From assembly GCA_018826075.1 (NCBI GenBank), contig JAHKAJ010000015.1:15091-79090 (forward strand): 64,000 nt of DNA. The letters are read 5' to 3'. Shown here in pieces: positions 9,470 to 64,000 of the stretch (the stretch's first letter is position 1; each line of letters starts with the position of its first letter). The notes under the pieces were generated by a model that ran no database searches, was not told the origin of the DNA, and saw only the letters and a program-made list of their open reading frames with translations. The translations under genes were made by a program, and so were the position numbers. This stretch comes from Candidatus Omnitrophota bacterium. Its GTDB lineage: Bacteria > Omnitrophota > Gorgyraeia > Duberdicusellales > 4484-171.

Positions 9470-9491
9470 ATCAAAATTGCTTCATACATAA

Positions 9492-10106: not shown

Positions 10107-10109
10107 TAT

Positions 10110-12257: not shown

Positions 12258-12308
12258 AAAAATTCCTCCTTACTAATTGTTAATAACTATTTTGTTTTCA
12301 AAAACTTT

Positions 12309-12917: not shown

Positions 12918-12921
12918 CTGA

Positions 12922-14962: not shown

Positions 14963-14971
14963 AATATATCC

Positions 14972-16819: not shown

Positions 16820-16822
16820 TAA

Positions 16823-18991: not shown

Positions 18992-19007
18992 AATACTCTG
19001 CAATATT

Positions 19008-19769: not shown

Positions 19770-19788
19770 TTTCGCACCTCCGAATCTG

Positions 19789-20928: not shown

Positions 20929-20937
20929 AATAACATC

Positions 20938-45765: not shown

Positions 45766-46825
45766 ATCGCGCCTCTTGACATTTCTTAGAAATAGCTGTC
45801 ACTGCCTTATATATAGGTAAAAACCCAGGATAGTTTACTGACTTTTTATTTAACAATGAACTCAAACTCACTTCTTTTGAGGAAAACAACTGCTTGGTTT
45901 TCTTTAAAATCCCATAGGCTCCGGGAATGCACTTACTTATCTTCTTTAAGCGTTCTTTTGGGGAAAAAACAGCATAGCGCTGCTTAAACTTATCTGACAG
46001 GCAACCATTCAGATAGCTCCAAAAAGCCCTTTTAGATATAGCCTGAGCCTGCTCGCGAGTAATACTATCCTCCTGAATAAGGCCTTCAACCAAAGAATCA
46101 TGAAATATTTTATAAGCTTCATTCCAGTCAGGATTAGTTATCCAATCATAAATATCACTATGAAATGCACGCCCCTGATGGTGCTGTCTCACTAAATACA
46201 GGTCATCATAATGCTTTATTTTTCCATGAACAACAGAAAGGCAACATGGCAATAGCTCCTCCATAAATGCCCGCTCAGAGAGTTGTTTAACATTCTGATA
46301 TAACTTTTTCCATGTTTCCGTGCGCTGAACTGAAAAAACAGTAACACTGTAATTATTTAAATGGCCTATTAACCTCTCGCTTGCTGTTGATTCCTCTACT
46401 GCCCGCTGAGGATACCTCCCTATATTCAAAAACTCTCCATAAACACCGGAATTCTTAAGTGAAAAAACCAAAGCGCTACCATGAGCGGCACTATATTCTG
46501 GATTGCTCTCTAGAAAATCAATACACTTTTCCAACGTTTTGGTAATAATGAAGTCATCGTCAAGAATGATTGCTGCATAAGGAGTATCTAACTTGTCGAC
46601 CAGGGCCTTCAAGCACATTGAAATCGATAGATTAGGATACTCAAGGTGTCTAATGTTTAACTTACCGTCTAGGCTCTTAATAAATTCTTTAGTTCGTTCC
46701 AGATGAGTCTGGTCACTGGAATCTCCTATACAAATTGAATAGGGATAGTCTGTGTCAGCGTAATATTGCAGTAATCTAATTAAAAAATCAGATCGGTCCA
46801 TTGTCGGAATCATCAAGGTAATCAT
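45758..46825 (-). CDS. GT2-like glycosyltransferase.
   Basis: LMIPTMDRSDFL...AAIILDDDF (DXD). Confidence 0.5.
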   Translation of the reverse strand: MITLMIPTMDRSDFLIRLLQYYADTDYPYSICIGDSSDQTHLERTKEFIKSLDGKLNIRHLEYPNLSISMCLKALVDKLDTPYAAIILDDDFIITKTLEKCIDFLESNPEYSAAHGSALVFSLKNSGVYGEFLNIGRYPQRAVEESTASERLIGHLNNYSVTVFSVQRTETWKKLYQNVKQLSERAFMEELLPCCLSVVHGKIKHYDDLYLVRQHHQGRAFHSDIYDWITNPDWNEAYKIFHDSLVEGLIQEDSITREQAQAISKRAFWSYLNGCLSDKFKQRYAVFSPKERLKKISKCIPGAYGILKKTKQLFSSKEVSLSSLLNKKSVNYPGFLPIYKAVTAISKKCQEARYG

Positions 46826-46849: not shown

Positions 46850-48055
46850 TTAACCTTCTTGCTTATTATTTATAAACTCTTCGACGATTTTTAAAAAATA
46901 ATCGAGATGCTCTTTGCCTAAATCCTGATGCACCCCAATATGCAGACCATTGTTACCTACATACTCAGCATTTGGGAAATCACCTAACTTATAGCCTAAG
47001 AATTCGAATCCCGGACATTGAGTCGGCATTGAAGAAAAAAGACTTCGTGTGTCAACGCCTTTTTCTTCAAGAAAAATCACCAATTGTTCACGACTGAATT
47101 TAGCCTTTTCCTGGACAATAATCGGAAAGGCATGTGGACCTATCTTTTCATAAGCGGCCTCTTCTATAGTTACAAGGTCAGCTTCGAACTTTTTAAAATT
47201 ATCAATTAAATATTTTAAGTTTTCTCTTCTTTTATCTAATATGTCCTGATAACTATCGATATTGCCAAGACCAATAGCCGCTTCCATTTCGTTCATCTTG
47301 CAGGAATAGCCAATCCGCTCAAAGCTAAATCGAATATCTCGCTTTTGACCATATTGAAACCGCTTAGCGCAATATTTAGATTGGGTATTAAGTTGGCAAA
47401 TTTTGCATTTGCAGGCTCGACCATGGCAACGCAACGATCTTAAAATTTCAGCAAATTCAGAGTTATCAGTAGTTATGATTCCGCCTTCAACCGTAGTGAT
47501 AATGTGGGCTACATAAAGGCTAAAAGCTCCCATATCAGCCAAGGCCCCAGCTTTTTTGCCCTTATATTCGGCACCATGAGCTTCAGCAGCATCTTCGATA
47601 ACATAAAGATTGTATTTTTTGGCTATTAGTTTAATCTCATCCATCGCTGCTGGTTTACCCATTAAATGAACCGGCATAATTGCGCATGTGTTATCAGTAA
47701 TTGCTGCCTCTATTTTTTTAGGATCGATATTTAAAGTTTTCCGATCAATATCGATAAATGCCGGCCTAAACCCGGCTTGCAACACTGCGTTTCCAGTAGC
47801 TACAAAAGAAAGTGCCGGAACTATTACCTGATCGTCTTTTTGAGCCCCAAAATCATACAATGTTGCTAAGGCTAAAGCATCGGCATCAGTGCCACTGGAT
47901 ACAGCGACTGCTTCTTTAACCCCGATTAGCTGAGCGAATCTCTCTTCCAATTCTCTTACATATTTACCGGAAGAAAGACGATTAGAATCTAAACACTGAT
48001 TAACCAATTCTTTTGCTTTAGTAGTAACTGAAATAGTACCAAAAGGTATTCTCAT
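46850..48055 (-). CDS. DegT/DnrJ/EryC1-family PLP sugar aminotransferase.
   Basis: VSSGTDALALA and the family-wide layout. The start is refined to the ATG at 48053..48055, which forms an ATGA overlap and has an AAGGGAG SD. Confidence 0.8.
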   Translation of the reverse strand: MRIPFGTISVTTKAKELVNQCLDSNRLSSGKYVRELEERFAQLIGVKEAVAVSSGTDADALALATLYDFGAQKDDQVIVPALSFVATGNAVLQAGFRPAFIDIDRKTLNIDPKKIEAAITDNTCAIMPVHLMGKPAAMDEIKLIAKKYNLYVIEDAAEAHGAEYKGKKAGALADMGAFSLYVAHIITTVEGGIITTDNSEFAEILRSLRCHGRACKCKICQLNTQSKYCAKRFQYGQKRDIRFSFERIGYSCKMNEMEAAIGLGNIDSYQDILDKRRENLKYLIDNFKKFEADLVTIEEAAYEKIGPHAFPIIVQEKAKFSREQLVIFLEEKGVDTRSLFSSMPTQCPGFEFLGYKLGDFPNAEYVGNNGLHIGVHQDLGKEHLDYFLKIVEEFINNKQEG

Positions 48056-49482
48056 TTTTTCAACTCCCTTTGGAAAAGACATCTTTTAATTTTGTCAGTC
48101 AATCTAAATAACATAAGAATCGCCCCTAAAATTCCACTTTTACGAATCATCGGTAAAATTCGCCAAGGAGCAGAATAGATACTTAAAAATCCGTCATTTT
48201 GTAGCTGAAGTAACTTTTCGGCCGACAACTCGTTCACCTCCATAACCGCTGAACCGTAACGCCTGTACCTTGAATAGTCTTCAGTCAATAATCTTAATCC
48301 ATAATCTCCTCTTCTAGCCATATCATAAAGCTCAGTGCCAGGGTAGGGAGTAGCAATGCTAAAATTGGCCTGCTGAATATCTCGGGCCTGACGCAAAAAG
48401 CTAAGTGTTTTGCCTACGGTTTCAGCTGTCTCCCCGGGTAAACCAAGCATAATCGAATTCAAAGTCTCAATGCCATATTTATTAGTAATCCGATTGGCTT
48501 TTTCATAACTATCTAAAGGAACTTCTTTTTTAATAATTTTGCGAATTTCAGGATCGACAGTTTCTAAACCAAAAGAAATTCTAATTAAACCGCTGTTAGC
48601 CATAACTTCTACCAACTCTTCATCAATCAGATTTGCTCGAGTGCTGCCGTCAAAAGTTATTTTCAAGTTCTCTTTAATTATTGCCTGACAAATTGCTAAA
48701 ATATAGTTTCGATCCAAAGTAAGAGTATCATCAAGAAAAGTAAAATGCCGAGTATTAAAATTATAAATCACTGACTTAATCTCAGCGATGACTGAATCTA
48801 CAGATCTTCTTCTCACCTGACTTCCAAATACTTTAGTGCTACAAAATATGCATTTAAAAGGGCAACCTCTTGTAGTCATGATAGTAGTGAAATTCTTTCT
48901 GCCCCTTAAAGTTCCGATATTATATTTTTCTCTGTTTAGCAGGTGTCGGGCCGGATAAGGTATTGAATCGATGTCCTTTACTGGTTCTGAACTGCCGGTA
49001 GAAATAGTTTTGCCGTCTTTCCGATAAATAATGCCTTTAATACCGGAAATGTCTTCATCATTTTCATAACGGTTCAAAAAATTAACCCATGACTCCTCAG
49101 CTTCGCCAATAAACGCATAGTCAAAACAAGCTGGGAAATCTTTTTCCTGTAATATAGTTATATGGGCCCCTCCGATAACTATCGGGATATTAGAAAACCT
49201 CCGTTTAAAAGCCTTGGCATGCTCAACCACTATATGGAAAAAAGGAGTAGTTGCGGTCATGCCGATAATATCCGGATTGAAATTTTCTATTTCTTTGGTA
49301 ATTTTTTCTAAAGAAATATTTTCAGCCTCAGCATCGATAATTTTCACTGTATGACCCAGTTTTTCAGCCAAAGCAGCGATGTAAGCTAAATTTAACGGCG
49401 GCCAAATAGATGCTTTTTTGGCAAAATGCGAAAATATTCCGTATTCAGCCGTCCAGCGTGGAAATAGCAATAGGATCTTCAT
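48052..49482 (-). CDS. B12-binding radical-SAM enzyme (class B).
   Basis: N-terminal B12-binding domain and TRGCPFKCIFC. Confidence 0.75.
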   Translation of the reverse strand: MKILLLFPRWTAEYGIFSHFAKKASIWPPLNLAYIAALAEKLGHTVKIIDAEAENISLEKITKEIENFNPDIIGMTATTPFFHIVVEHAKAFKRRFSNIPIVIGGAHITILQEKDFPACFDYAFIGEAEESWVNFLNRYENDEDISGIKGIIYRKDGKTISTGSSEPVKDIDSIPYPARHLLNREKYNIGTLRGRKNFTTIMTTRGCPFKCIFCSTKVFGSQVRRRSVDSVIAEIKSVIYNFNTRHFTFLDDTLTLDRNYILAICQAIIKENLKITFDGSTRANLIDEELVEVMANSGLIRISFGLETVDPEIRKIIKKEVPLDSYEKANRITNKYGIETLNSIMLGLPGETAETVGKTLSFLRQARDIQQANFSIATPYPGTELYDMARRGDYGLRLLTEDYSRYRRYGSAVMEVNELSAEKLLQLQNDGFLSIYSAPWRILPMIRKSGILGAILMLFRLTDKIKRCLFQRELKK

Positions 49483-49483
49483 C

Positions 49484-50185
49484 TTAATTTTTCACTACCA
49501 AACTCTTCTTTGCTTGTTCGTATCTCTCCGGGGTACCGATATCAACTAATTGCTGTTCAGTTACATAGCCAAAGCAATTTTTGTTTTTAAGTTTAGGGAA
49601 TAAATCATATTCCAAAGAAAATATCCCTTTAGGCATATAGGAAAAAATAGTTTTTTCCATAAAATATATACCTGCATTCATAAAGCCTTGTTTTTGAGAG
49701 TCGGCCCGCTCAGAAAAATCTTTTATCTGACCAAAATCATCCAAAGTAACTATTCCGCAATCTCCTGACTCTCTTGCCTTAACTAGAACTAAAGTAGTAA
49801 AAGCTTTTTTACTCTGATGAAAGTTGAAAACCTTATTAAAATCCAAATCACAAAAAGAATCACCATTTATAGCTAAAAATAAATCACTGGTAACTAACTT
49901 CTCGGCCTTCTTTAAGCCACCGCCAGTGCCCAAAGCGCTCTCTTCTTCAGAAAAAACTATATCCTCCCGGTCTTTAAAATACTCTATGACCTCTTCTCTT
50001 TTATAGCCAACACTTAAAATAAACCGCTTAAAACTAAATCTCTTAAGATTCGTAATTAAAAGATCCAAAAAAGGTTTGCCATTAATATCCGCTAAAACTT
50101 TAGGCTTATCAGCTAAAACTGATTGTAATCTTTCACCCTTTCCACCGCAAAGGATAACTACATCTATATTTGTTAAATCACTCAT
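49484..50185 (-). CDS. Sugar-1-phosphate nucleotidyltransferase (HddC/NTP_transferase-like).
   Basis: VVILCGGKGERL...KPKVL. Confidence 0.7.
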   Translation of the reverse strand: MSDLTNIDVVILCGGKGERLQSVLADKPKVLADINGKPFLDLLITNLKRFSFKRFILSVGYKREEVIEYFKDREDIVFSEEESALGTGGGLKKAEKLVTSDLFLAINGDSFCDLDFNKVFNFHQSKKAFTTLVLVKARESGDCGIVTLDDFGQIKDFSERADSQKQGFMNAGIYFMEKTIFSYMPKGIFSLEYDLFPKLKNKNCFGYVTEQQLVDIGTPERYEQAKKSLVVKN

Positions 50186-51246
50186 TGCTTAATTATGGTT
50201 GAATTGCTAGCTATCTTTTCAGCCGCTAAAACATCCTTGTCAACATCTGCCCAAGACTGATGATCAGGAGCATAGTAAATTATCTGACTACCTAAAGTAT
50301 CAAACTTAAAAGGAACATAGAGTAACTCACCCAAAGCCTTTCTTACCTGAGGCTGAAGCTCAGGTTTAACAAAAAATAAAATAAACCCTCCACCACCGGC
50401 TCCCAAAAGTTTTCCGCCGCTGGCTCCGGCTCTGATAGCGCTTTCATATATTTCATCAATAACCGGAGTTGAGATCTTAGAAGTTAAACTCCTTTTTAAC
50501 ATCCAATTTTCATTAAGTAACTTACCAAACTCATCATAGCTATCTTTGCTTTGATTTAAAATATCCATTGCTGCAGCCACCATCTCATGCATAGCTGAAA
50601 GTTCCTTCTTTTTATTGGCCGTTTTTCTTATTTGCTCTTCGGCAATTTCAGAAGCAGTTCTTGAAAAACCAGTAAAAAACAACATTAGATGCTTTTGAAA
50701 ATGTTGCATTTTCTCAAGATCTACAGTTACCGGCTGAACTTCAATGTTATGGCTGTTAAAGGTAATTTCATTAAATCCGCCGAACGCGGCGATGGTTTGA
50801 TCTTGTGAACCAACATGCTCTTTGATTCGCTCCTGCTCAATGTGAATAGCTTCAAGCGCCAGCTGCTTCTTAGTTATCATATTGCCTTTTAAAGCATATA
50901 AAGCATTAAGCAAGCCTACGGTAAAAGATGAACTTGAGCCAAGACCGGTTCTAGCCGGCAAATCGCCATCATGATGTATTTCTACCCCCTTATCTAAATT
51001 CATAAAACCTAAACATTCCCTAACTGAGGGGTGTTTTATCTGAGAAAGCTTTTTTACTGCCTCGCGTTCTGAATAGACTATTCTATATTTATAACCAAAA
51101 AATGGCGGAAGGTACCGACAAGTTACATAACAATACTTATTAATTGAAGCTGAAATCACGGAGCCTTCATTTTCCTTATACCAAACCGGGTAATCAGTCC
51201 CTCCGCCAAAAAACGAAATTCTGAATGGAGTTCTGCTTATAATCAT
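50182..51246 (-). CDS. GHMP sugar kinase (HddA-like heptose-7-P kinase).
   Basis: IISRTPFRISFFGGGTDYP; GHMP motif PxGSGLGSSSS, here ARTGLGSSSS. Confidence 0.7.
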   Translation of the reverse strand: MIISRTPFRISFFGGGTDYPVWYKENEGSVISASINKYCYVTCRYLPPFFGYKYRIVYSEREAVKKLSQIKHPSVRECLGFMNLDKGVEIHHDGDLPARTGLGSSSSFTVGLLNALYALKGNMITKKQLALEAIHIEQERIKEHVGSQDQTIAAFGGFNEITFNSHNIEVQPVTVDLEKMQHFQKHLMLFFTGFSRTASEIAEEQIRKTANKKKELSAMHEMVAAAMDILNQSKDSYDEFGKLLNENWMLKRSLTSKISTPVIDEIYESAIRAGASGGKLLGAGGGGFILFFVKPELQPQVRKALGELLYVPFKFDTLGSQIIYYAPDHQSWADVDKDVLAAEKIASNSTIIKQ

Positions 51247-52217
51247 TTTGCCCCCACCATAGCTCTACAAGCTTCTTTAATCCGGTTTAGGATGCTGATT
51301 GTGTCTATCTGATTTATTTTATAGAGATGGTCACGGCCGCCAAGTTCAAAAACATACCTATCTTGGAAACCTAAACCTTTAAAGAAAACATTAGCTTGCC
51401 GATCATTTAAAATATTTAAAATCGCTGAATCCAGCCCGCCTTTTTTAATAAAAGCCTCTTCCAAAGTAATTACATATTTATAGTTCTTTAGAGTTTCAAA
51501 AATCAAATCTTCGTTCAAGGGTTTAATCAAAAGCATATCCAATAATCCGCAGTTAATACCTTGATTGCTAAGCTCCTCCACTACTTCACGAGCCTTGTGG
51601 GTCATGTAGCCGGTTGAAACTAAACAAACATTTTCACCTTTCTTAAGTTCATAAAATCCTCTTTCTAAATCCTCAAAAGTAATCGTATCGTAAATTTGCG
51701 GCAAGGGTTTGGCATCGAGCCGAAAGTATTTTGGTTTTTTAACCTTAAAAGAATATTCAGCCAAAGCCTTAGTTGCTACCCAATCACTGGGAGAAGCCAC
51801 AATAAAGTTAGGTAAAACTCGCATTAAAGCAATGTCCTCAAGACAATGGTGACTGGGTCCGGAGACATCATAACTTATCCCTGAACCAACTCCGACTAAA
51901 TTTATATTTAACTCCTTAGTTTGAGCAAGCAAAGATAAGTTATTTCTATTCTGTTCAAAAGCCCGCATAATTAAAAACGGTGCAATAGCATAAGCATAGA
52001 CGATGTAACCTTCCAAAGCCAACCCGGTTGAGATGTTAATTAAATTCTGCTCGGCAATTCCCACATTGATAAACCGGTCACTAAAATCTGCTCTCACTTT
52101 ATCGAGAACCGACGAACCAAAATCAGCCGATAAAAAGAAAATACTCTCATCTTTGGTCATTCGCTGATAAATCTGCTCAATAAAAGCATCACGCATTGTC
52201 TTCTTGCTAGGATTCAT
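51243..52217 (-). CDS. Transketolase, C-terminal (pyrimidine-binding) subunit.
   Basis: FLSADFGSS...INVGIAEQNLI. Confidence 0.75.
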   Translation of the reverse strand: MNPSKKTMRDAFIEQIYQRMTKDESIFFLSADFGSSVLDKVRADFSDRFINVGIAEQNLINISTGLALEGYIVYAYAIAPFLIMRAFEQNRNNLSLLAQTKELNINLVGVGSGISYDVSGPSHHCLEDIALMRVLPNFIVASPSDWVATKALAEYSFKVKKPKYFRLDAKPLPQIYDTITFEDLERGFYELKKGENVCLVSTGYMTHKAREVVEELSNQGINCGLLDMLLIKPLNEDLIFETLKNYKYVITLEEAFIKKGGLDSAILNILNDRQANVFFKGLGFQDRYVFELGGRDHLYKINQIDTISILNRIKEACRAMVGAK

Positions 52218-53029
52218 AAGCTCGATTCCTCAACTAGAGCATCAACCTCTTGGGCCGAAAGAGACCGAACATGGCAAAGACTATCATTTTCTAATTTAGG
52301 GACCCCTTTTCCTTTTTTGGTTTGAGCAATAATGAGCTTAGGCTTAGAGTTTCTGTCTTTTTTGGCTTTCAGCAAAACTTCCTGCATTACCGCTGGGTTA
52401 TGACCGTCAACTTCTTGAGTCATCCAACCAAAAGCCTTAAATTTATCGGCTAAGGGAGTTAAATCAAGTATTTTACTGCAATAATCAAGCATGCAAATCT
52501 TATTGTTATCAATAATTAAAATTAGATTATCCAACTTATGATAGCCGGCAAACATAACTGCCTCCCAAACTGAACCTTCATAAAGCTCTCCATCACCAAG
52601 AACAACAAAAACGCTCTCAAGCCTATTCTTTCTCTTTAAACCTATAGCTACTCCTGAAGCCACGCCTAGGCCGTGGCCTAGGGAACCATTTATAGTTTCA
52701 TAGCCAGGAATCAGGGTGTCGGGGATACCACCCAAGAACGAGCCTTCCTTGCAAACAGTTAAAAGTTCTTTTTTATCAAAAAATCCTAAATCAGCTAAAA
52801 TCGGATATAAACAGATTGAACCATGGCCTTTGCTGACTATCAACCGGTCTCTGTCTTCGGCCCTAAGGTTTGTCGGGTCATATTTCAATACTTTGCCATA
52901 ATACAGAGCCACAAAAAGCTCAACACTGGATAACGAAGAGGCAATCCGGGTCTCAGGAGCTAACTTATGCACCTTTAAAGTTTCTTTACGCACCCAATTA
53001 GACTTTTCAACTAAGAAATTTGGCTGCAT
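52214..53029 (-). CDS. Transketolase, N-terminal (TPP-binding) subunit.
   Basis: GHGSICLYP...LGDGELYEGSVWEA. Confidence 0.75.
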   Translation of the reverse strand: MQPNFLVEKSNWVRKETLKVHKLAPETRIASSLSSVELFVALYYGKVLKYDPTNLRAEDRDRLIVSKGHGSICLYPILADLGFFDKKELLTVCKEGSFLGGIPDTLIPGYETINGSLGHGLGVASGVAIGLKRKNRLESVFVVLGDGELYEGSVWEAVMFAGYHKLDNLILIIDNNKICMLDYCSKILDLTPLADKFKAFGWMTQEVDGHNPAVMQEVLLKAKKDRNSKPKLIIAQTKKGKGVPKLENDSLCHVRSLSAQEVDALVEESSL

Positions 53030-54516
53030 TCTAATGGATCCTCAAACAGCTTCCGGTTTAGTTTATGTTCCAACATCTGCTTTATATGTTCAAGCGTAGG
53101 TTGACCGAATTTTTCCTCAACCATCTTAAGATATCTAGGATTTTTATAATACTCATCAAAGGCCCGGTCTCTAAAACTTAACACCTCTTTGGCCGAAATA
53201 TGCTTAGTAGCCAAAGGAATAGTTTCTCGACTAATCTGTGAATATTCGAGCCAATTAGAAGAAAGTTTAATTCCCTGCTTTAGGGACTCCTGATAAAGCC
53301 TTGAACCAGGATAAGCCATGGTGGTGTAAAAATTAATATATTCGCAATTAAGCTCTTTTGCTAAATCTAAAGTCTCCTGCATTGATTCTAAATCATCATC
53401 GGGAAGGCCAAACATAAAATTACCGATTATGTTAATTCCTGCATCTTTGGTCATTTCAACCACTCTTTTTATTGCCGCCTGATCAAACCTACCCTTGGAA
53501 ACTTCCTCACGCACTTTTCTGCTAGCAGCTTCGATTCCATAAGCTAACCAATTTACTCCGGCTTTTTTTAACTTGTTCAAAATAGCTTCATCAACTGTAT
53601 CAATTCTGGCATAAGCCCAAATATTTAAATCATAGTTACGCTCAATCAATAAATCACAAAATTGGTTAACTCTTTCCTTATTAAGAACAAAAAGTTCATC
53701 AAGAATTTTAAAGTTTTTAACAGCATACTTCTTTACTAAAAAATCTATCTCTTCAACTACTTTTGAAATACTGCGATAACGTATTCCCGGTTGCCCATTG
53801 TACAACGCCCTGATATTGCAATATTTACAGTCAAAAGGACAACCCAAACTAGTATAGATAACTGCATAAGGACTGCGTTGATTGACATGGTCAAAACAAT
53901 GCCAATTGTGAGCACGGTATTTATCCATCGGCAAAAGATCCCAGGCAATAAACCCCAACTCATCTAAATCTTTAATTAAATCTGCCCAACCATTAGCAAT
54001 AACTTTCCCGTTTTTTACATACCAAAGACCTTTAATCAAAAGATCTCCCATTTCCTGATCAGTTTTCAATGTTTTTAAAAGTTCTAAAATCGGATAGAAA
54101 CTTTCTCCCCGACAAACAAAATCAACTGCTTCCTCCTTGAGAGTTTTCTCAGGCAAAGCTGAAACGTGAATACCATAGGCGACGGTCTTACCCTTAAGCT
54201 GCTTTGCTTTAAGCAGTTTTAAAACCTGACTGGCTGCGGCCATCTTAGGTGTTGATGCCGCCGATGGATTAGCCCCTATTGTACCAACGCCAATCAAAAT
54301 TGGATCGCAAGCAACGATTCTTTCAACGATCTCTTGAGTACTTAACTTTTCTGCATCAGCATCTATAATTGCGACTTCAAATCCCTTGTCGCGAATAAAA
54401 CTGGCTAACAAACCTGTCCATACTGGAGGTTCGATTCCAGAAAAAACCTCACTCAGTTTTCCATATGTGACTTTTTTATTGCCGGGATTTATTAGTAAAA
54501 GGTCTGGCTTATTCAT
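53011..54516 (-). CDS. B12-binding radical-SAM enzyme (class B).
   Basis: B12-binding N-terminal domain and SLGCPFDCKYCN. Confidence 0.75.
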   Translation of the reverse strand: MNKPDLLLINPGNKKVTYGKLSEVFSGIEPPVWTGLLASFIRDKGFEVAIIDADAEKLSTQEIVERIVACDPILIGVGTIGANPSAASTPKMAAASQVLKLLKAKQLKGKTVAYGIHVSALPEKTLKEEAVDFVCRGESFYPILELLKTLKTDQEMGDLLIKGLWYVKNGKVIANGWADLIKDLDELGFIAWDLLPMDKYRAHNWHCFDHVNQRSPYAVIYTSLGCPFDCKYCNIRALYNGQPGIRYRSISKVVEEIDFLVKKYAVKNFKILDELFVLNKERVNQFCDLLIERNYDLNIWAYARIDTVDEAILNKLKKAGVNWLAYGIEAASRKVREEVSKGRFDQAAIKRVVEMTKDAGINIIGNFMFGLPDDDLESMQETLDLAKELNCEYINFYTTMAYPGSRLYQESLKQGIKLSSNWLEYSQISRETIPLATKHISAKEVLSFRDRAFDEYYKNPRYLKMVEEKFGQPTLEHIKQMLEHKLNRKLFEDPLECSQIS

Positions 54517-56427: not shown

Positions 56428-58404
56428 CTAAATACCCAACTTCTCTTCAGTCCAGGTCCGTTTTTCCTTATACCACTGGACAGTATTTTTTATTCCGGTT
56501 TTAAAATCTACCTGGGTTGAGAAACCCAAAGCCGAGATCTTTGATGAATCCAGGCAATAGCGAAAATCATGGCCTGGACGGTCAGTGACAAAATCAATAC
56601 AGTCTTTATCTTTTCCCAATAGTTTTAAGATCTCTCTGGCTAAATCGATATTTCTTTTCTCAACCCCTGAGCCTAAGTTATAGACTTCGCCAAGCTTTCC
56701 CTTGTCCATGACCAAAGCAATACCCCGGACACAATCGGTAACATAAAGCCATTCGCGTTTATTCAATCCTTGAGCATAGACCGGAATTTTTCTATCGGCT
56801 AAAACACTGGAGATCGCCACCGGGATAAACTTTTCCGGGTATTGCCAGGGGCCGTAATTATTGGAAGGCCTGATGGTCACTGCCGGAAAACCATAAGTCC
56901 GGACATAGGCTCGAACTAGGAAATCTGCGGCAGCCTTAGAAGCTGAATACGGCGAATTAGGCGCCAAAGGATGATTTTCCTTAAACTTACCTTTTTCAAT
57001 ATCACCGTAAACTTCATCGGTGGAAATATGGACAAACCTCTTTACCTTATATTTGCGGGCGCAGGCTAAAAGGTTAAGAGTACCCCGGACATTGACTTCT
57101 TCAAAAATAAACGGGTCTCTGATTGAATTATCGACATGGGTATTATGACAAACTACATTTCCTATTCCACAAACGAAATTGTGGCTCTTCTCTACTTCCA
57201 GATCATAAACCCAACCTTCATATTGAATTTCCTGTTTTTTTCTCTTCACCAATCCATAATGCTGGCCAGATAATTCAGTCTTAAACTCCCAGCTTCTTTT
57301 ATAGTTCTTTCTATCGCATTCAAAAACTTTGAATTTTTTTCCTTGTAATGTTAAAAGGAGGCTGATTTGATTCGTTAATTTGTAAGAAGTAGTCGAATAC
57401 CTGCCATCTTTAGTGCCATCACCTTCGAGTAACTTACTCCAAAAAAAACTCCGTTGATTAGCTTCTAAATCAAAAATCCAATCTGGGAAGAATTTTCCAT
57501 CACAATATTTTCCACAATTTTTTATTAAATAATTGAAAAACTTTTTATTGGACACCTGTAAATAAAACACATCTTTATGCTGTTTATTTTTATGCTTACC
57601 GATATAGCATTTTAACGAAAATTCTTTTCTAATTAGTTCTCCTATATGTTCAATCCATCCCTTGTTAGCTTGATTAATTTCTATGATATATCCGCCATTA
57701 GCCTTATTGAAAGTCGCATTTCCTTCTGTTATATAGGCTGCTAGAATTTCCAAAAGTGCCAAGCTTTTTCTCTTATTCCTTTTTTTTATTTCATTTATTT
57801 CTCTAATAACCAATAACTCCGGGTTAGTGTGCGGATTAGTCAACTCAAGACTTGAACTATAAATAGAATGGTTTGGAGTTGCTTTTATAACTCCATGCTT
57901 CTGAATTAGTTTTATAATCTTACCTTTATACCTATGTCGAGTAATTGCTTTGACTGGCATCCATTGGCCACCATTCAGAAAACTTAAAATTTTCGTCTGC
58001 TTGCCTCTTAAAAATATCGCTTCCCCCTTTTCGTTCTTTATGGGCTTATTATTTTTAGCCTGTTCTTTCCACAGCTCACCAAAGGTAATTGTTCTTGTCC
58101 CTATCCTGGGGACAGATTGAACTGGGACATAAATATCCTCGGGAATGCTTTCAGCCGCTAAATGTACCACCGTGTCTATAGGATGTGGAAAAATCTCTTC
58201 AATGTCAGAAATATTTCTTAAATCAGCCTTGATAAAATGATAACTTTTATTTTTGGAAACATCTTTCAAGCGGGCTAAATCTCCGGCGTAACTTAAATTA
58301 TCCAGGTTAAAGACGTTACAGTCGCGCTTATTTTCTAAAAGATAACGCACAAAATGCGATCCAATAAACCCTAAACCACCGGTAACTAAAATATTTTTAG
58401 CCAT
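56428..58404 (-). CDS. rmlB: dTDP-glucose 4,6-dehydratase (RmlB) interrupted by an intein.
   Basis: ILVTGGLGFIGSHF...HLAAE|intein|THVDNSI...YSASKAA.... The protein is 658 aa against about 320-350 for RmlB. Confidence 0.8.
   Translation of the reverse strand: MAKNILVTGGLGFIGSHFVRYLLENKRDCNVFNLDNLSYAGDLARLKDVSKNKSYHFIKADLRNISDIEEIFPHPIDTVVHLAAESIPEDIYVPVQSVPRIGTRTITFGELWKEQAKNNKPIKNEKGEAIFLRGKQTKILSFLNGGQWMPVKAITRHRYKGKIIKLIQKHGVIKATPNHSIYSSSLELTNPHTNPELLVIREINEIKKRNKRKSLALLEILAAYITEGNATFNKANGGYIIEINQANKGWIEHIGELIRKEFSLKCYIGKHKNKQHKDVFYLQVSNKKFFNYLIKNCGKYCDGKFFPDWIFDLEANQRSFFWSKLLEGDGTKDGRYSTTSYKLTNQISLLLTLQGKKFKVFECDRKNYKRSWEFKTELSGQHYGLVKRKKQEIQYEGWVYDLEVEKSHNFVCGIGNVVCHNTHVDNSIRDPFIFEEVNVRGTLNLLACARKYKVKRFVHISTDEVYGDIEKGKFKENHPLAPNSPYSASKAAADFLVRAYVRTYGFPAVTIRPSNNYGPWQYPEKFIPVAISSVLADRKIPVYAQGLNKREWLYVTDCVRGIALVMDKGKLGEVYNLGSGVEKRNIDLAREILKLLGKDKDCIDFVTDRPGHDFRYCLDSSKISALGFSTQVDFKTGIKNTVQWYKEKRTWTEEKLGI
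57142..58149 (-). mobile_element. Intein (about 336 aa) with a LAGLIDADG-type homing endonuclease, inserted in the RmlB HLAAE-S/THVD active-site region.
   Basis: Ser1 is residue 86 (codon 58147..58149). Block B reads GVIKATPNHSIY. The LAGLIDADG-like motifs are LALLEILAAYITEGNA and FFWSKLLEGDGTKDGRY. The C-terminal blocks F and G read GWVYDLEVEKSHNFVCGIGNVVCHN, ending at Asn421 (57142..57144), followed by Thr+1. Confidence 0.7.
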
Positions 58405-58957
58405 AGTTAAATCCTACATCGGCATCCTGCAAAGTAGGCCATTTTTTATCCCGTTCTGACAGAATCGGTTCTAAGCTGGGCCAGTGGACATCAATGGTCC
58501 GGTCTGACCAGATGATCCCCCGGTCGTCAGCCGGAGAATACTCATTGCTACAGCTATAGATGACTTCGCTGTTTTCCTCAAGGGTACAGAAACCGTGAGC
58601 AAAACCTTCGGGGATATAAAGCATAGCCTGATTTTTAGTCGAAAGCACAGCTGAAACCCAACGGCCAAAAGTAGCTGAACCCCGCCTGATATCCACTGCT
58701 ACATCAAGGATGCCTCCCGAAACCACCCTGACTAATTTTGCCTGCTGCATTGGTTTTTTCTGAAAATGTAAACCCCGGATCACTCCTTTAGCAAAAGTTT
58801 TAGAGTGATTCTCCTGAACAAACCGGTCTTTGATCCCGAATTTGGCAAAATCGCTTTCCTTATAGGTTTCCATAAAAAACCCCCGTTCATCGCCGATTAA
58901 GCGGGGCTTGATCAAGACCACTTCCGAGATTTCCAACCTTTTAAATTCAAAGGGCAT
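58397..58957 (-). CDS. rmlC: dTDP-4-dehydrorhamnose 3,5-epimerase (RmlC).
   Basis: Cupin-fold RmlC; ERGFFMETY; 186 aa. Confidence 0.8.
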   Translation of the reverse strand: MPFEFKRLEISEVVLIKPRLIGDERGFFMETYKESDFAKFGIKDRFVQENHSKTFAKGVIRGLHFQKKPMQQAKLVRVVSGGILDVAVDIRRGSATFGRWVSAVLSTKNQAMLYIPEGFAHGFCTLEENSEVIYSCSNEYSPADDRGIIWSDRTIDVHWPSLEPILSERDKKWPTLQDADVGFNYG

Positions 58958-58958
58958 T

Positions 58959-59828
58959 TTACTGTTCCTCAGCCAGAATGCTTAATAAATACTCTCCGTA
59001 ATTAGTGTTTACCTGTTTGGCTAATTGTCTTAACTGCCCGGCATTGATATAACCCATCCGAAAAGCTACTTCCTCGATACAGCCGACTTTTAAACCCTGG
59101 CGGTCTTCAATGGTCTTTATAAACATTGAAGCGTCGATTAAGGAATCATAGGTTCCGGTATCCAGCCAGGCATAGCCGCGGTTGAGAAATTTAGTTTTCA
59201 GTTTGCCGCGTTTAAGATATTCATTATTGACATCAGTGATCTCAAGCTCCCCCCGGGCTGAAGGCTTAAGAGCTTTGGCAATCTCGATTACTTTATTATC
59301 ATAAAAGTACAAACCGGTCACTGCCCAGTTTGATTTAGGATTGGCGGGTTTTTCTTTAAGCGCTGTAATATTTTTATTCTTGTCGAATTCGATTACTCCG
59401 TACCTCTCGGGATCTTTTACGTAATAACCGAAGATTACTCCACCCTCCGGTTCTGAAGCCGCTTCAACTAAAAGATCGGAAAGATTATGGCCATACAAAA
59501 CATTATCTCCTAAAATCAAACAAACCCGGTCTTGGCCGATAAACTCCTCGGCCAGAATAAAGGCCTGGGCTATACCTTCAGGCTTACTTTGAGCCAGGTA
59601 AGAAAATTTTACCCCTAAAGAACTTCCGTCACCCAAAAGATATTGAAAACGTTCAAGATCCCGGGGGGCTGAAATTATCAGAATATCCCTGATCCCGGCC
59701 AGCATTAAGACTGATAAAGGGTAATAAATAAGCGGCTTATCATAAACCGGCAGTAATTGTTTGCAGACCCCTTTAGTGATCGGATAAAGCCTGGTAGCAG
59801 TACCTCCGGCTAGAATTATTCCTTTCAT
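58959..59828 (-). CDS. rmlA: Glucose-1-phosphate thymidylyltransferase (RmlA).
   Basis: [37 protein letters not shown]. The ATG at 59826..59828 with a GGAGG SD is preferred over the track's TTG. Confidence 0.85.
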
Positions 59829-59830
59829 AA

Positions 59831-60208
59831 TCAAACCTCCGCCTTAATATCTTCAATCTCCTCTCCGTTAGCAATCAACTCCTGCTGTAACTTGCTCCAT
59901 TCGCTGCGCATCCGATTATATTCTTCCTCTTTTTTCTTTAAAAAGTGATAGGCAAGATGAATCTTCTGCTTTAAGCCGCTTTTAGTAAGAATATACCTTA
60001 CCTTACCCAACTTATCTTTGCCATGGGAGAAATTTCTGGCTTTGATCAGGTTTTTCTTGATTAGCGATTTTAGCAAGTAGTTAGTTTTACCCAAAGAGAT
60101 CTCAAGATGACTCGACACATCTCTCTGAGTTAAATCGTCTTGGCTGGATAAAAGACGCAGGATATTAAAAATATCCTCACCGAGAGTATATTTTTCTTCT
60201 TTCGCCAT
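59831..60208 (-). CDS. Small winged-helix (MarR/PadR-like) transcriptional regulator; first gene after the promoter.
   Basis: 125 aa, with a ...[30 protein letters not shown]... HTH-like segment and a C-terminal coiled-coil. Confidence 0.4.
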
Positions 60209-60276: not shown

Positions 60277-60304
60277 ATTATAAAACCACACCGGGATATG
60301 TCAA
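60277..60304 (-). promoter_or_regulatory. Near-consensus sigma70-type promoter (TTGACA-N16-TATAAT) driving the regulator and the downstream array.
   Basis: On the minus strand, TTGACA is at 60299..60304 and TATAAT at 60277..60282, with a 16-nt spacer. It lies in the only substantial intergenic gap of the window. Confidence 0.45.
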
Positions 60305-60351: not shown

Positions 60352-61146
60352 CTATAACTTGCTGCGGTTTAATATCTTAGAAAGAATATCTTTCCGGGGA
60401 GCCGCGCAGATAAAACCGGAGTTTTTTAAGCTTTTCTTGTTATAGCTTAGACCCAAGACCCTGGCTCCAGAGCTTTCAGCGATGGCCTGGCCGCTAGCAG
60501 TGTCCCACTCCATGGTCGGGCCTTGCCTTAGGTAAAGATCGGCTTTTGCCTCAGCCACCCGGCAGAACTTCAGGGAACTTCCGGCATAAATTATCCGGGG
60601 ATTCTTAAACCAAGAGACCACTGTTTCTTCCTCAAGGCTTTGGTGAGAACGGCTCCGTACTATTACCACTCGCTTACCAGAAAGTTTATTGGCCAAAATC
60701 GGCTTAAACTTATTGTTTTTATCGACCTTAAAAGCGCCTTTTTGTTTCTGGCCGAAATATAATTGCTGCCGGGCCGGAATACCGATTATTCCTAAAACCG
60801 GCTGAGAGTTATGGATTAAGGCGATATTGACCGTAAACTCTCCGTTTCGTTTAATAAACTCTTTGGTTCCGTCCAAAGGATCGATCAACCAAAAATATTT
60901 CCAGTTCTTTCTTTTGCTGAAACTTACCGGCCGGCTTTCTTCGGAAATAAGCGGTATCTTGGGAAATAATTTCTTTAGCTTTTTAACTATCAGCTCCTGA
61001 GAAAGCTGATCAGCCAAAGTTAAAGGGCTATTATCTTTTTTTATTGAGACTTCGGTTTGATGGGAATTATAAACTTCGATTATCTTTTGGCCGGCCAGAG
61101 AGGCTATCTTAAGCAGTTGTTTTATCTGAGAATCATTAAAAATCAT
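60352..61146 (-). CDS. cysQ: 3'(2'),5'-bisphosphate nucleotidase (CysQ; inositol monophosphatase family).
   Basis: WLIDPLDGTKEF. Confidence 0.75.
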   Translation of the reverse strand: MIFNDSQIKQLLKIASLAGQKIIEVYNSHQTEVSIKKDNSPLTLADQLSQELIVKKLKKLFPKIPLISEESRPVSFSKRKNWKYFWLIDPLDGTKEFIKRNGEFTVNIALIHNSQPVLGIIGIPARQQLYFGQKQKGAFKVDKNNKFKPILANKLSGKRVVIVRSRSHQSLEEETVVSWFKNPRIIYAGSSLKFCRVAEAKADLYLRQGPTMEWDTASGQAIAESSGARVLGLSYNKKSLKNSGFICAAPRKDILSKILNRSKL

Positions 61147-61760
61147 TTTTGGATATAACCATTCTTGTCCAAATAATCTAAGATCGCTTTTGCGCTTTCC
61201 TGCTTATTAAATTTTTCTGTATCTACAACTAGCTCAGGGCTTTGCGGCTCTTCATATGGGGCGGAAATTCCGGTAAATTCTTTAATTACCCCCGAACGGG
61301 CTTTTTGATAAAAGCCTTTAGGGTCTCTTTGTTCACAAATCGAAAGCCCGGCTTTAATAAATACCTCGATAAAATCACTCTTGGATAAGATCTTTCTTAC
61401 CTGATCCCGGTCTTTTCGGTAAGGAGAGATGAAGGCAGTTATAACTAAAAATCCGGCATCGGAAAAAAGTTTTGCCACTTCTCCAATCCTGCGGATATTT
61501 TCCTCACGGTCCTGGGGTGAAAATCCCAGGTTGCTGTTCAAACCGTGCCTGATATTATCCCCGTCTAAGACGTAAACTTGACAATCTCTTTCAAATAGCA
61601 TTGCCTGCAGCTCGACAGCTATAGTTGACTTTCCCGAAGAAGGAAGCCCGGTAAACCAGATAACCGCTCCTTTGTTTTTGTTTCTTTGTTCGCGGTCGGA
61701 TTTTGAAACTCCGCTCTCATGCCAGGTTATATTTGTACTTTTAATTTTATCCTTATTCAT
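61143..61760 (-). CDS. cysC: Adenylylsulfate (APS) kinase.
   Basis: GAVIWFTGLPSSGKSTIA. Confidence 0.85.
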   Translation of the reverse strand: MNKDKIKSTNITWHESGVSKSDREQRNKNKGAVIWFTGLPSSGKSTIAVELQAMLFERDCQVYVLDGDNIRHGLNSNLGFSPQDREENIRRIGEVAKLFSDAGFLVITAFISPYRKDRDQVRKILSKSDFIEVFIKAGLSICEQRDPKGFYQKARSGVIKEFTGISAPYEEPQSPELVVDTEKFNKQESAKAILDYLDKNGYIQK

Positions 61761-63024
61761 CTTTTCTCCTTCGGTAATAATCAGTTAAAATTTGCGAAAC
61801 CGGTTTGCGCATCACTCTTTGATCGACTTCTTCGCCATTCTGAAGTTTTTTTCTCAACTCCTTACCGGAAATCGATATCTGATGATAGCCTTTTTTACCA
61901 AACTCATCAACCAGGCCGACTCTTTCTATTTCCTCAAAATAAGCGGCAAAACCGACCTTGACCGGCTGGATAAGCAGTTCACCCTTAAGTTGACTGAATT
62001 TATCCTGGGCATCAAAGTCACGCCAGGCCGCAATTCCGTCATCAAAAGAAGCGTCGGCGTGTTTCCTGCCGATAATAATGTCACTAAATCCGTAATTCTG
62101 CCGATAGATAGCATGCATTATCGCCTCTTTGGGCCCGGCATAAAACATCTTCATATCCAGCCCGATCAGTAAAAATTCATCGCTTAGATCATAACCTTTA
62201 GTTTTCCATAGCTCTAAATCTTTATCACCAAAACCCAGCAGTTTATGTTCGATCAAGGCCTCATAAGTCTGCATCCGGACATCAGCCGGGACATCATCGG
62301 ATTTAGTTGCCCCGACTAAAGGGTTAAGCACTACTCCGGTAAAAAAACCCTGCCGGGTAAGCTCCTCCATGGCATAAACCAGGGCATATTCATGGGCCCG
62401 GTGTAAAGCATTTCTGGTCTGAAAAGCAATAATCCTTTCCCAGCCGCGCTTCTTGAATATTTCTCTAGTAGCTTGGGGAAAAAGCATGTATTTGCTGTAG
62501 GCCGAACGGGCAACTTGAGAGAAAGCCCGGATCTTTCCGCCTAAAAGGTACTCGCGCCGGTCATCGTTAACAATCCGGGGGCCGGGATGATCAATGCGTT
62601 CAGTACCGTAAACTGATCGGTTATAAGCTTTCTTATCAAAAAAATAAATATCGGAAATTTCCAGCAGGCCGACAGTCTCGCCGGATTCAGTTTTAACGGC
62701 CACGGTTTCGCCGATACTGAATTTGTCGGCTTCTTGCTTATAAACTGGAAAAGCGATCGGAATAGTCCAGGCATAAAGTTTGCCATTCCTTTCTATGCAT
62801 TCATCCTGCAAAACTTTATTAAACTCATTTTCATCCATCGGCCCTTCTAAAGGAGATAGGGCTCCGTCGGCAATCCGGTAAAATACCGAAAGATCTGAAT
62901 CGAAAATATTATAAACCTTGATTTGTGAAGTTTTGGCTAAAAAACCGGGTTTTTCGGATTCGCTGATAAAGCGGTTGATCAGGCCTATGCCGCCGTGAAC
63001 CGGATAACTACTCTGATTTTTCAT
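61753..63024 (-). CDS. sat: Sulfate adenylyltransferase (ATP sulfurylase, Sat type).
   Basis: IAFQTRNALHRAHEYAL (QTRN...H...H motif). Confidence 0.8.
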   Translation of the reverse strand: MKNQSSYPVHGGIGLINRFISESEKPGFLAKTSQIKVYNIFDSDLSVFYRIADGALSPLEGPMDENEFNKVLQDECIERNGKLYAWTIPIAFPVYKQEADKFSIGETVAVKTESGETVGLLEISDIYFFDKKAYNRSVYGTERIDHPGPRIVNDDRREYLLGGKIRAFSQVARSAYSKYMLFPQATREIFKKRGWERIIAFQTRNALHRAHEYALVYAMEELTRQGFFTGVVLNPLVGATKSDDVPADVRMQTYEALIEHKLLGFGDKDLELWKTKGYDLSDEFLLIGLDMKMFYAGPKEAIMHAIYRQNYGFSDIIIGRKHADASFDDGIAAWRDFDAQDKFSQLKGELLIQPVKVGFAAYFEEIERVGLVDEFGKKGYHQISISGKELRKKLQNGEEVDQRVMRKPVSQILTDYYRRRKDE

Positions 63025-64000
63025 GAAATCTCTTGATTGTTGAGGTTACATACTCGACTTGCCGGTCGCTTAAAAAAGGGTGGATCGGAAGGCTTAAGAT
63101 TTTTTTGGCGGTATCTTCGCTGGCTTTCAAACTGCCGCCTGATTTAGCTGTCTTAAAAGCTTTCATCTTATGTAAAGGAACCGGATAGTAGACGCGTGAA
63201 CTTATCCCCTTGGAATTCAAATAGTTAAGAAGCTGATCTCTTTTTGATGAAACTTTTAAACTATAAAGATGATAAACGTGTTCACTAGCTTTAGGCACAA
63301 AAGGAGTTTTAATCCCTTTGATACCTTTTAGGCCTAAGTCATAGCTTCTGGCAAACTTTCTTCTTAAAGCATTCAATTTATCGATATATTTAAGTTTAGC
63401 TAAAAGTATTGCTGCCTGGATTGAATCCAAGCGAGAATTATATCCGATAAAAGAAGCGTCGTATTGGCTGGTCTGGCCGTGGTTACGCAAAGTTTTTAAA
63501 GACTCAAATAATTTATGGCTGTCAGTTACGATCAGGCCTGCGTCGCCAAAACCGCCTAAATTCTTGGAAGGAAAAAAACTAAAAGCTCCACAATCCCCGA
63601 AGCTGCCTAACTTTTTATTTTCCAAGCTGGCGCCGAAACTTTGTGCAACATCTTCCACCACAAACAAATCGTTCTCTCTGGCTATTTCAAGAATCGCCGA
63701 TAAATCAGCAGCTAAACCGTAAAGGTGCACCGGCATGATGCCTACGGTATTTTTAGTAATCGCTTTTTTGATCTTTAAAGGGTCGATATTAAAAGTCTCG
63801 GGGTCAATATCTACGAATACCGGGGTTGCCCCGCAACGGACAATACTTTCAGCGGTAGCGATAAAGGTAAAGGGGGTGGTGATGACCTCGTCTTTCTTAT
63901 CAAAATATTCCCGGCCTTTGATTTTAAGAGCCAGGGCGCTTAAAGATAAGATAAGGGCTTCGGTGCCGGATGAGACGCCGATCGAATATTTTGAACCTAG
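63008..64000 (-). CDS. DegT/DnrJ/EryC1-family aminotransferase, partial because the N-terminus lies beyond the window end.
   Basis: The in-frame translation continues upstream of the track ORF to the window edge (...SGTEALILSLSALALKIKGREYFDKKDEVITTPFTFIATAESI...MPVHLYG...). Confidence 0.75.
   Translation of the reverse strand, partial: LGSKYSIGVSSGTEALILSLSALALKIKGREYFDKKDEVITTPFTFIATAESIVRCGATPVFVDIDPETFNIDPLKIKKAITKNTVGIMPVHLYGLAADLSAILEIARENDLFVVEDVAQSFGASLENKKLGSFGDCGAFSFFPSKNLGGFGDAGLIVTDSHKLFESLKTLRNHGQTSQYDASFIGYNSRLDSIQAAILLAKLKYIDKLNALRRKFARSYDLGLKGIKGIKTPFVPKASEHVYHLYSLKVSSKRDQLLNYLNSKGISSRVYYPVPLHKMKAFKTAKSGGSLKASEDTAKKILSLPIHPFLSDRQVEYVTSTIKRFHEKSE

Follow-up and report, generated by a model that had tools for sequence, protein, structure and literature searches.

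In rhizobia, genes for the synthesis of 3'-phosphoadenosine 5'-phosphosulfate (PAPS) occur together with sulfotransferases in a surface-glycan setting, as in the NodPQ/NodH and LpsS systems. In the sulfated capsule cluster of Vibrio sp. KMM 8419, the PAPS genes cysNDC and sulfotransferases lie within the polysaccharide cluster, and the co-location of PAPS genes was named by its authors a hallmark of sulfated polysaccharide synthesis (PMC11641403). Here, we analyzed a 64-kb stretch of DNA from a Candidatus Omnitrophota bacterium (GenBank assembly GCA_018826075.1, contig JAHKAJ010000015.1, positions 15,091 to 79,090), hereafter the window, in which the PAPS genes sat, cysC and cysQ are contiguous with a glycan locus, as judged from gene positions and Pfam matches. 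The same arrangement is kept in related metagenome-assembled genomes (MAGs). All 61 open reading frames (ORFs) of at least 150 aa are on the minus strand, as are the window features given below, and the GC content is 0.35–0.43.

The locus resembles the Vibrio and NodPQ systems in that sulfate-activation genes are placed within a surface-glycan locus. However, the ATP sulfurylase is of the Sat type rather than CysDN/NodPQ, CysQ is included, the 64 kb encode no canonical sulfotransferase, and the host is an uncultured member of the Omnitrophota. From the gene content, we consider it somewhat probable that the cassette is a PAPS supply dedicated to surface-glycan sulfation, the sulfation itself being what we infer. 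The product of one further gene, ORF 21611..22681, is predicted to have a sulfotransferase fold, and we tentatively propose it as the PAPS-dependent enzyme, with a likelihood that we place a little short of even.

The sat–cysC–cysQ cassette and the head of the glycan island

The initial annotation of this DNA had recognized a sat–cysC–cysQ cassette at 60352..63024, and Pfam domains were found for all three genes. The sat gene (61753..63024) encodes a homo-oligomeric-type ATP sulfurylase with a PUA_2 domain (Pfam 1.7e-32) and an ATP-sulfurylase domain (3.9e-59, 200 bits). The cysC gene (61143..61760) encodes an adenylyl-sulfate (APS) kinase (PF01583 APS_kinase, 5.7e-69) with the Walker A sequence GLPSSGKST, and cysQ (60352..61146) encodes a 3'(2'),5'-bisphosphate nucleotidase, that is, a phosphatase for the by-product of sulfotransfer, 3'-phosphoadenosine 5'-phosphate (PAP) (PF00459 Inositol_P, 4.3e-51). 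CysC and CysQ also pass the NCBIfam cut-offs, CysC with 267.7 bits against 138.7 on the equivalog-domain model TIGR00455 (apsK), and CysQ with 258.8 bits against 228.8 on the equivalog TIGR01331. These E-values, together with the overlapping frames described below, are far beyond chance. The formation of PAPS from sulfate and ATP and the hydrolysis of PAP are the activities predicted from these gene identities.

Sat itself stays under the NCBIfam cut-offs (261.5 vs 322.95 bits). It is alignable end to end with solved ATP sulfurylases of the PDB (best 8a8d, 7.5e-45), and its first active-site motif, QxRNxxHxxH, is retained as QTRNALHRAH. The second motif has GRKHAD where GRDHAG would be expected, a trait of the clade that is seen in 68 of 71 Sat relatives (L003–L077). 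The predicted PUA_2, ATP-sulfurylase and APS-kinase chemistry is the same as that of the bifunctional Sat–APS kinase PAPS synthases such as Aquifex aeolicus 2gks, and the window proteins are 65–74% identical to the Sat part of proteins from this clade. Most members of the clade are indeed Sat–APS-kinase fusions of 600–650 aa. Unlike the 2gks-type fusions, sat and cysC of the window are separate, overlapping genes.

APS-kinase homologues in glycan loci can use other substrates, as in Campylobacter jejuni, where Cj1415 phosphorylates CDP-phosphoramidate for the capsule O-methyl phosphoramidate. With this precedent, a CysC-like kinase might make a 3'-phosphorylated donor other than PAPS, and the glycan would then carry a modification other than sulfate. 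A second, membrane-anchored APS-kinase paralogue encoded beside Sat in the relatives is compatible with such a scheme. We consider it very improbable, because CysC scores almost twice the TIGR00455 cut-off, the APS kinase is fused to ATP sulfurylase in most relatives, the kinase is paired with a PAP phosphatase, and no glutamine kinase or phosphoramidate cytidylyltransferase set was found. The paralogue is a 242-aa protein, a DUF2061 membrane segment fused to an APS-kinase domain, whose gene lies between DegT and Sat in the relatives (L003:9233-9961, L004:5259-5987, L008:8718-9446 and L163:5576-6304). The window is without it, and there DegT directly overlaps sat.

Pfam scans of the large window ORFs, from which the rmlA and rmlC ORFs were left out, revealed no CysD, CysN, CysH or sulfite reductase, in agreement with the initial annotation. 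Two other sulfur pathways were considered and rejected. Dissimilatory sulfur metabolism is excluded by the lack of Apr and Dsr together with the presence of CysC and CysQ, and UDP-sulfoquinovose synthesis requires sulfite, yet no APS or PAPS reductase is present. An Rfam search of the window gave no match.

The cassette is preceded by a gene for a DegT/DnrJ/EryC1-type sugar aminotransferase (63008..64000; ORF 63008..>63997), whose 5' end lies beyond the window and which matches PF01041 with 2.8e-104 over profile positions 38–359. This neighbor, too, had been noted initially. The stop of DegT and the start of sat overlap by 17 nt, sat and cysC by 8 nt, and cysC and cysQ by 4 nt, and therefore the PAPS genes are coupled in translation to the gene of a sugar-nucleotide enzyme. 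On the other side, cysQ is separated by a 143-nt gap from a gene for a small winged-helix regulator (MarR/HTH_24-like, 125 aa; 59831..60208; Pfam HTH_24 3.7e-08, MarR_2 2.6e-05). The gap holds a sigma-70-type promoter-like site at 60304..60277 (TTGACA-16-TATAAT), which matches the consensus at 12 of 12 positions and whose promoter function is predicted from that match. The regulator gene is the first of the downstream island, which runs for about 56 kb on one strand. It overlaps rmlA (58959..59834) by 4 nt, followed by rmlC (58397..58957), both named from their translations and the homologous L163 genes (NTP_transferase and dTDP_sugar_isom, respectively), and by rmlB (56428..58404; Pfam Epimerase/GDP_Man_Dehyd, Intein_splicing and LAGLIDADG_3).

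Read from this layout, the cassette forms the end of an upstream DegT sugar operon, to which it is translationally coupled; it abuts the island but probably lies outside the island's own transcript. The earlier description of the cassette as fused to the head of the glycan island is therefore partly a reflection of where the window ends. Its contiguity with the glycan genes stands, whereas the fusion gives way to an operon tail separated from the island by a promoter-like site.

A genome scan with Sat retrieved 75 loci with 53–70% identity, from Planctomycetia-labelled, Omnitrophota, Bacteroidales, KSB1, Marinimicrobia and other MAGs. The sat gene of the window is also present on GCA_018827925.1. 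The adjacency of DegT and Sat is repeated in L003, L004, L005, L008, L015, L029, L162 and L163, and the junction is kept in at least seven loci at 65–73% Sat identity. These loci share a long gene order, which begins with LptD (in some), two UDP-sugar dehydrogenases, two to four epimerases and DegT, continues with the DUF2061–APS-kinase paralogue, Sat (often as an APS-kinase fusion) and CysQ, and ends with a β-rich ORF of 296–341 aa, a NusG paralogue (in some), a helix-turn-helix (HTH) regulator and the rml genes. LptD or a GT9 heptosyltransferase is found near them, and a homologue of the regulator follows the PAPS cassette in L003, L004, L005, L008, L015 and L163. Given this conserved order in the relatives, the junction seen in the window is a conserved part of the lipopolysaccharide (LPS)/glycan region of the lineage.

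Two gene arrangements behind CysQ in the relatives deserve a separate mention. The β-rich ORF (L004:8729-9739, L008:12198-13223, L029:4138-4515 and L163:9108-9998) belongs to no Pfam family and may be an outer-membrane protein. It was considered as a hidden sulfotransferase and rejected, because it terminates in ...RF, lacks a P-loop and is missing from the window. In the second Omnitrophica genome (L163:10090-11907), a NodU/CmcH-type carbamoyltransferase gene and a B12-radical-SAM gene lie between CysQ and the HTH regulator, where the window has the 143-nt gap.

The wider neighborhoods of Sat bear on what the cassette is for. Among the 132 same-strand neighbors collected across all loci, about 20 are sulfate-symporter-like (CitMHS/Na_sulph_symp with TrkA_C), 15 carry a PHP domain, seven are NusG paralogues and four are TauE proteins, while Sulfotransfer_3 and Sulfotransfer_1 account for four and three, respectively. 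Iterative searches revealed sulfotransferase-like ORFs in eight Sat loci, of which Pfam confirms seven, including the Omnitrophota loci L044 and L049, and L049 also carries GT2 genes. Judged by these neighbors, the Sat clade represents a PAPS-synthase module from which sulfotransferases are often supplied. Since the clade is found elsewhere beside sulfate importers, PAP phosphatases and canonical sulfotransferases, a dedicated PAPS supply is favored over assimilation.

PAPS-dependent assimilation likewise begins with Sat, CysC and CysQ, and many Sat relatives, such as the Bacteroidales loci, have no glycan genes nearby. The cassette might then serve general sulfate activation, for assimilation through a PAPS reductase or for other sulfated metabolites, and its place beside the glycan genes would be inherited synteny without functional meaning. 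The evidence covers the 64-kb window rather than the whole genome, and PAPS may have other uses elsewhere in it. We regard this explanation as improbable, given that the 64 kb hold no CysH or sulfite reductase, that the frames overlap a sugar aminotransferase gene, that the junction recurs among the relatives, and that Sat has canonical sulfotransferases and glycosyltransferases as neighbors in other lineages, including the Omnitrophota locus L049. The initial proposal of a dedicated sulfotransfer supply thus keeps its complete cassette, its window free of assimilation genes and its conserved tie to glycan genes; the role of PAPS as donor for ORF 21611..22681 is a part that we infer.

In the mechanism that we favor, a dedicated supply for glycan sulfation, Sat would adenylate sulfate to APS, which CysC would phosphorylate to PAPS. 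A sulfotransferase would then move the sulfate from PAPS to a glycan or nucleotide-sugar acceptor and release PAP, an inhibitory by-product of sulfotransfer that CysQ would hydrolyze. The cassette would represent a donor-supply and recycling module for surface-glycan sulfation, placed in the LPS/surface-glycan region, and the most likely candidate for the sulfotransferase would be ORF 21611.

A sulfotransferase-like fold encoded by ORF 21611..22681

No Sulfotransfer_* match was found by Pfam or NCBIfam among the scanned window ORFs. The jackhmmer searches seeded with the canonical sulfotransferases of the Sat-relative loci returned nothing significant in the window, nor did a canonical-sulfotransferase hidden Markov model run without filters, for which ORF 21611 ranked first at E 0.15. 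A regular expression for the phosphosulfate-binding (PSB) motif gave no other candidate among the window ORFs, and a Walker-A scan found only three genuine P-loop proteins, ORF 21611..22681, CysC and an ABC transporter (exporter). The unannotated ORFs 14972..16819, 16823..19036, 42653..43942 and 45758..46825 displayed no sulfotransferase signal and no PDB match; two of them have glycosyltransferase-type NCBIfam matches, and from their sequences we read them as glycosyltransferase-like. Likewise, the closest relatives showed no canonical sulfotransferase at distances of up to 10 kb from the cassette. These scans uphold the earlier statement that no confident sulfotransferase is present in the window.

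ORF 21611..22681, which the same annotation had singled out for its P-loop and a 3'-phosphate-binding (3'-PB)-like RHP motif, is the sole candidate left. It encodes 356 aa with the motifs GQPGCGKT, TTH143, VVR167HP and PFE255, so that both of the expected motifs are present. Its product has the same sequence as a Candidatus Omnitrophica MAG protein (100% identity) and reaches no Pfam or NCBIfam family. An AlphaFold (AF2) model built from a 45-sequence alignment was confident, with a predicted local distance difference test score of 93.2 and a predicted TM-score of 0.91. Compared by Foldseek against the PDB only, the model matched sulfotransferases exclusively at ranks 1–37, the best being TPST2 3ap3 (1.6e-6). 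The matches include TPST1/2, a tick TPST, the sulfotransferase domains of OLS and CurM, Stf1, Stf9, the cytosolic SULTs and 3-OST. The fold prediction suggested earlier for this ORF thus yielded a sulfotransferase fold.

Profile comparisons point in the same direction, albeit remotely. At a permissive Pfam threshold, 29 of the 45 family members match Sulfotransfer_3 (best 5e-4), and the other families frequent among these hits are all generic P-loop NTPase models. The alignment of the ORF 21611 family with six canonical Sulfotransfer_3 proteins by hhalign gave a probability of 36.8%, which rose to 81.2% (E 1.2e-5, 232 columns) with a 128-sequence family profile, while a sequence search of the family profile against the PDB returned generic P-loop matches only. 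In the hhalign pairing, the P-loop of the family corresponds to the 5'-PSB loop, VVR167HP to IIRDG, which contains the 3'-PB Arg, and PFE255xF..P to YEDL..P. K36, H143, R167, P169, E255 and P290-R291 are near-invariant across the wider family, and R167, which aligns with the canonical 3'-PB Arg, is kept in 127 of 128 members. In about 10% of the members, the P-loop Lys is followed by A, G or F, a feature that is uncommon in a Mg-ligating Walker A and slightly favors a metal-independent, sulfotransferase-like chemistry.

ORF 21611 thus shares with the Sulfotransfer_3/TPST proteins (PF13469; TPST2 3ap3, CurM/OLS 4gbm and 4gox, Stf1/Stf9) the fold and the strand–loop–helix order, an Arg at the 3'-PB position, a polar residue eight positions further on, and [FY]E....P after the last strand. 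Unlike them, it has a Walker-A loop, Gln or His in place of the 3'-PB Ser, an identity of 11–16% and no model threshold reached, and its family is located in nonulosonic-acid clusters. As judged from the model and the alignments, it is a remote relative of Sulfotransfer_3 with the same fold; since it lacks the PSB loop, one of the features that define sulfotransferases, we do not file it as a Sulfotransfer_3 member. If it acts on PAPS, K36 would stand in for the PSB Lys, either H143 or E59 could serve as the base, and R167, Q175 and R291 would hold the 3'-phosphate, an active-site geometry that rests on sequence alignment.

The ORF 21611 family and its possible link to the PAPS genes

The initial suggestion that the enzyme may belong to an unrecognized family was apt, in that no Pfam or NCBIfam model covers the family of ORF 21611. 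More than 700 homologues were found, all annotated as "hypothetical" and without Pfam domains, and a library clustered at 50% identity contains 1,423 clusters of the family at E<=1e-3 and 1,025 at 1e-10. In three other genomes and at 80 metagenome loci, members of the family lie within a legionaminic-acid-type cluster with genes for NeuB, UDP-GlcNAc 2-epimerase, a PglD-like acetyltransferase, a CBS-NTP transferase, a GFO oxidoreductase, CTP_transf_3, SDR and the WbuX/HisH/HisF amidotransferase. The clusters also contain an uncharacterized module of SIS, SDR, dehydroquinate (DHQ)-synthase-like, 2-hydroxyacid dehydrogenase, GFO and CTP_transf_3 genes, and an ORF of about 700 aa that resembles a GT-B glycosyltransferase.

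The neighbors of ORF 21611 in the window, named by Pfam/NCBIfam, are a WbuX-type N-acetyl-sugar amidotransferase (25967..27166), a CBS-NTP transferase (24859..25938), an epimerase (23883..24884), a second DegT (22693..23880), a CTP_transf_3 protein (20938..21600) and a DHQ-synthase-like protein (19789..20928). They recur in L078–L081 and in the 80 metagenome loci. Because ORF 21611 lies among legionaminic-acid-type nonulosonic-acid genes, the acceptor would be either a sugar of this type, the CMP-activated form of it, or a glycan that carries it. At 7779..21600 in the window and in L083–L161, the SIS/SDR/DHQ-synthase-like/2-hydroxyacid dehydrogenase/GFO/CTP_transf_3 set and the ORF of about 700 aa (16823..19036) travel with the family, and this set looks like a pathway to a CMP-activated sugar.

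Vertebrate WSCD1/WSCD2 are described as sialate O-sulfotransferases (PMC9304399). If the acceptor is of the legionaminic type, the reaction of ORF 21611 would be a bacterial counterpart of sialic-acid sulfation, as a functional analogy only. A literature search found no report of bacterial nonulosonic-acid sulfation or of the ORF 21611 family.

The two halves of the proposal, cassette and candidate, meet in the Omnitrophota. In the second Omnitrophica genome, a Sat homologue (P0274, 73% identity) and a family member (P0005) share one strand of a single 90,288-bp contig, separated by about 46 kb, and the DegT–Sat–CysC–CysQ-...-HTH–rml head is the same as in the window. Among the loci examined, PAPS genes on the same contig as a family member were seen in the Omnitrophota only. 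The pairing is therefore conserved in at least two Omnitrophota genomes and is not general to the family; these genomes are related, and shared ancestry could explain it.

Several observations weigh against ORF 21611 as the PAPS-dependent enzyme. The Foldseek TM-scores are only 0.4–0.5, and no Pfam sulfotransferase model reaches its gathering score, Sulfotransfer_3 giving 14.8 bits against 27. The loop GQPGCGKT, with the family consensus GxxGxGK[TS], is not the canonical [PH][KR]xG[ST][ST] 5'-PSB loop. Position 175, which corresponds to the 3'-PB Ser eight residues past the Arg, is Gln or His, and the position of the catalytic Lys/Arg is Gly in the family, with Arg in only 9 of 128 members. 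On the genomic scale, Sat, CysC and CysQ were not found within 8–10 kb at 83 family loci outside the Omnitrophota, and none of the 75 Sat relatives has a family member within 10 kb. The absence of the three PAPS genes holds for the 80 metagenome loci and for two of the three other genomes. In the window itself, the cassette and ORF 21611 are 39 kb apart and are probably separate transcription units. The initial choice of ORF 21611..22681 as the best sulfotransferase candidate is therefore sustained by its fold and weakened by its kinase-type Walker A loop and by the PAPS-free surroundings of the family outside the Omnitrophota.

With a kinase-type Walker A loop in place of the PSB loop, ORF 21611 could instead be an ATP-dependent kinase or phosphotransferase on a sulfotransferase-like scaffold, acting in the nonulosonic-acid or CMP-sugar pathway, and the cassette would feed a glycan sulfotransferase encoded outside the window. 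The Lys of the GxxGxGK[TS] loop is invariant (126/126), CMP kinases appear among the weaker Foldseek matches (ranks 38 and 45), and the family occupies a conserved WbuX, SIS, SDR, DHQ-synthase-like, 2-Hacid_dh, GFO and CTP_transf_3 module without PAPS genes in the 80 metagenome loci. DHQ-synthase-type enzymes use phosphorylated ulosonic acids; the ORF could, for example, have kept an ancestral Walker A and make a phospho-intermediate for the adjacent DHQ-synthase-like enzyme. On the other hand, only sulfotransferases are found among the 37 best structural matches, the 3'-PB and YEDL motifs, which kinases do not have, are paired in the profile alignment, and R167 and P290-R291 occupy sulfotransferase 3'-phosphate-binding positions. 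Furthermore, about a tenth of the members have A, G or F instead of the Walker A Ser/Thr, and the closest relatives also lack a canonical sulfotransferase within 10 kb of the cassette. We hold a kinase to be unlikely, if still a plausible function.

Other sugar genes of the island and implications

The remainder of the island contains further genes for uncommon sugars. Three encode B12-binding radical-SAM proteins (30592..32037, 48052..49482 and 53011..54516) and one a SPASM-domain protein (37494..38306), which suggest an unusual C-methylation or other radical chemistry on sugars. At 49484..53029, a transketolase encoded in two parts (52214..53029 and 51243..52217) precedes a GHMP kinase and a nucleotidyltransferase, and genes for a transaldolase, an HpcH aldolase and a SIS isomerase are located at 10766..12917. 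These transketolase, transaldolase and aldolase sets point to the synthesis of a higher-carbon sugar phosphate within the island. Two NeuB-type nonulosonic-acid synthase genes (32039..33022 and 41772..42632) and four genes for CTP_transf_3 cytidylyltransferases imply, as far as gene counts can tell, that two or more different ulosonic acids are activated.

The intein of rmlB, the dTDP-glucose 4,6-dehydratase gene, is about 335 aa long, carries a LAGLIDADG endonuclease and is inserted at the conserved site HLAAE|S...VVCHN|THVDNS. In related MAGs, RmlB has 655–686 aa (655 aa in L163), and in one the UDP-glucose dehydrogenase carries an intein; the loci concerned are L015:8303-10363, L163 and L005:3-2624.

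Glycan loci with their own PAPS genes are a known signature, and the cassette alone is an ordinary new example from a poorly known phylum. The added value lies in the candidate enzyme, with its confidently modelled sulfotransferase fold and its very large family, unnamed in databases and located in legionaminic-acid-type clusters. In the broadest version of the proposal, the family would be a large unrecognized branch of sulfotransferases from many phyla, with a GK[TS] loop that binds PAPS, and would O-sulfate legionaminic-acid-type nonulosonic acids; at this breadth, we find the proposal quite doubtful. If ORF 21611 is a sulfotransferase, it would add a new bacterial sugar modification, a sulfated nonulosonic acid or "sulfated sialic-acid analogue", and would provide a missing marker of glycan sulfation for metagenome surveys. 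As one study notes, the known sulfotransferases leave unexplained the sulfated glycoconjugates that were measured in extracellular polymeric substances from sludge and the environment (PMC10483923), and the family could explain part of the gap between these detected glycoconjugates and the scarce recognizable sulfotransferase genes. If ORF 21611 is a kinase, it would still define an uncharacterized step in a widespread CMP-sugar pathway.

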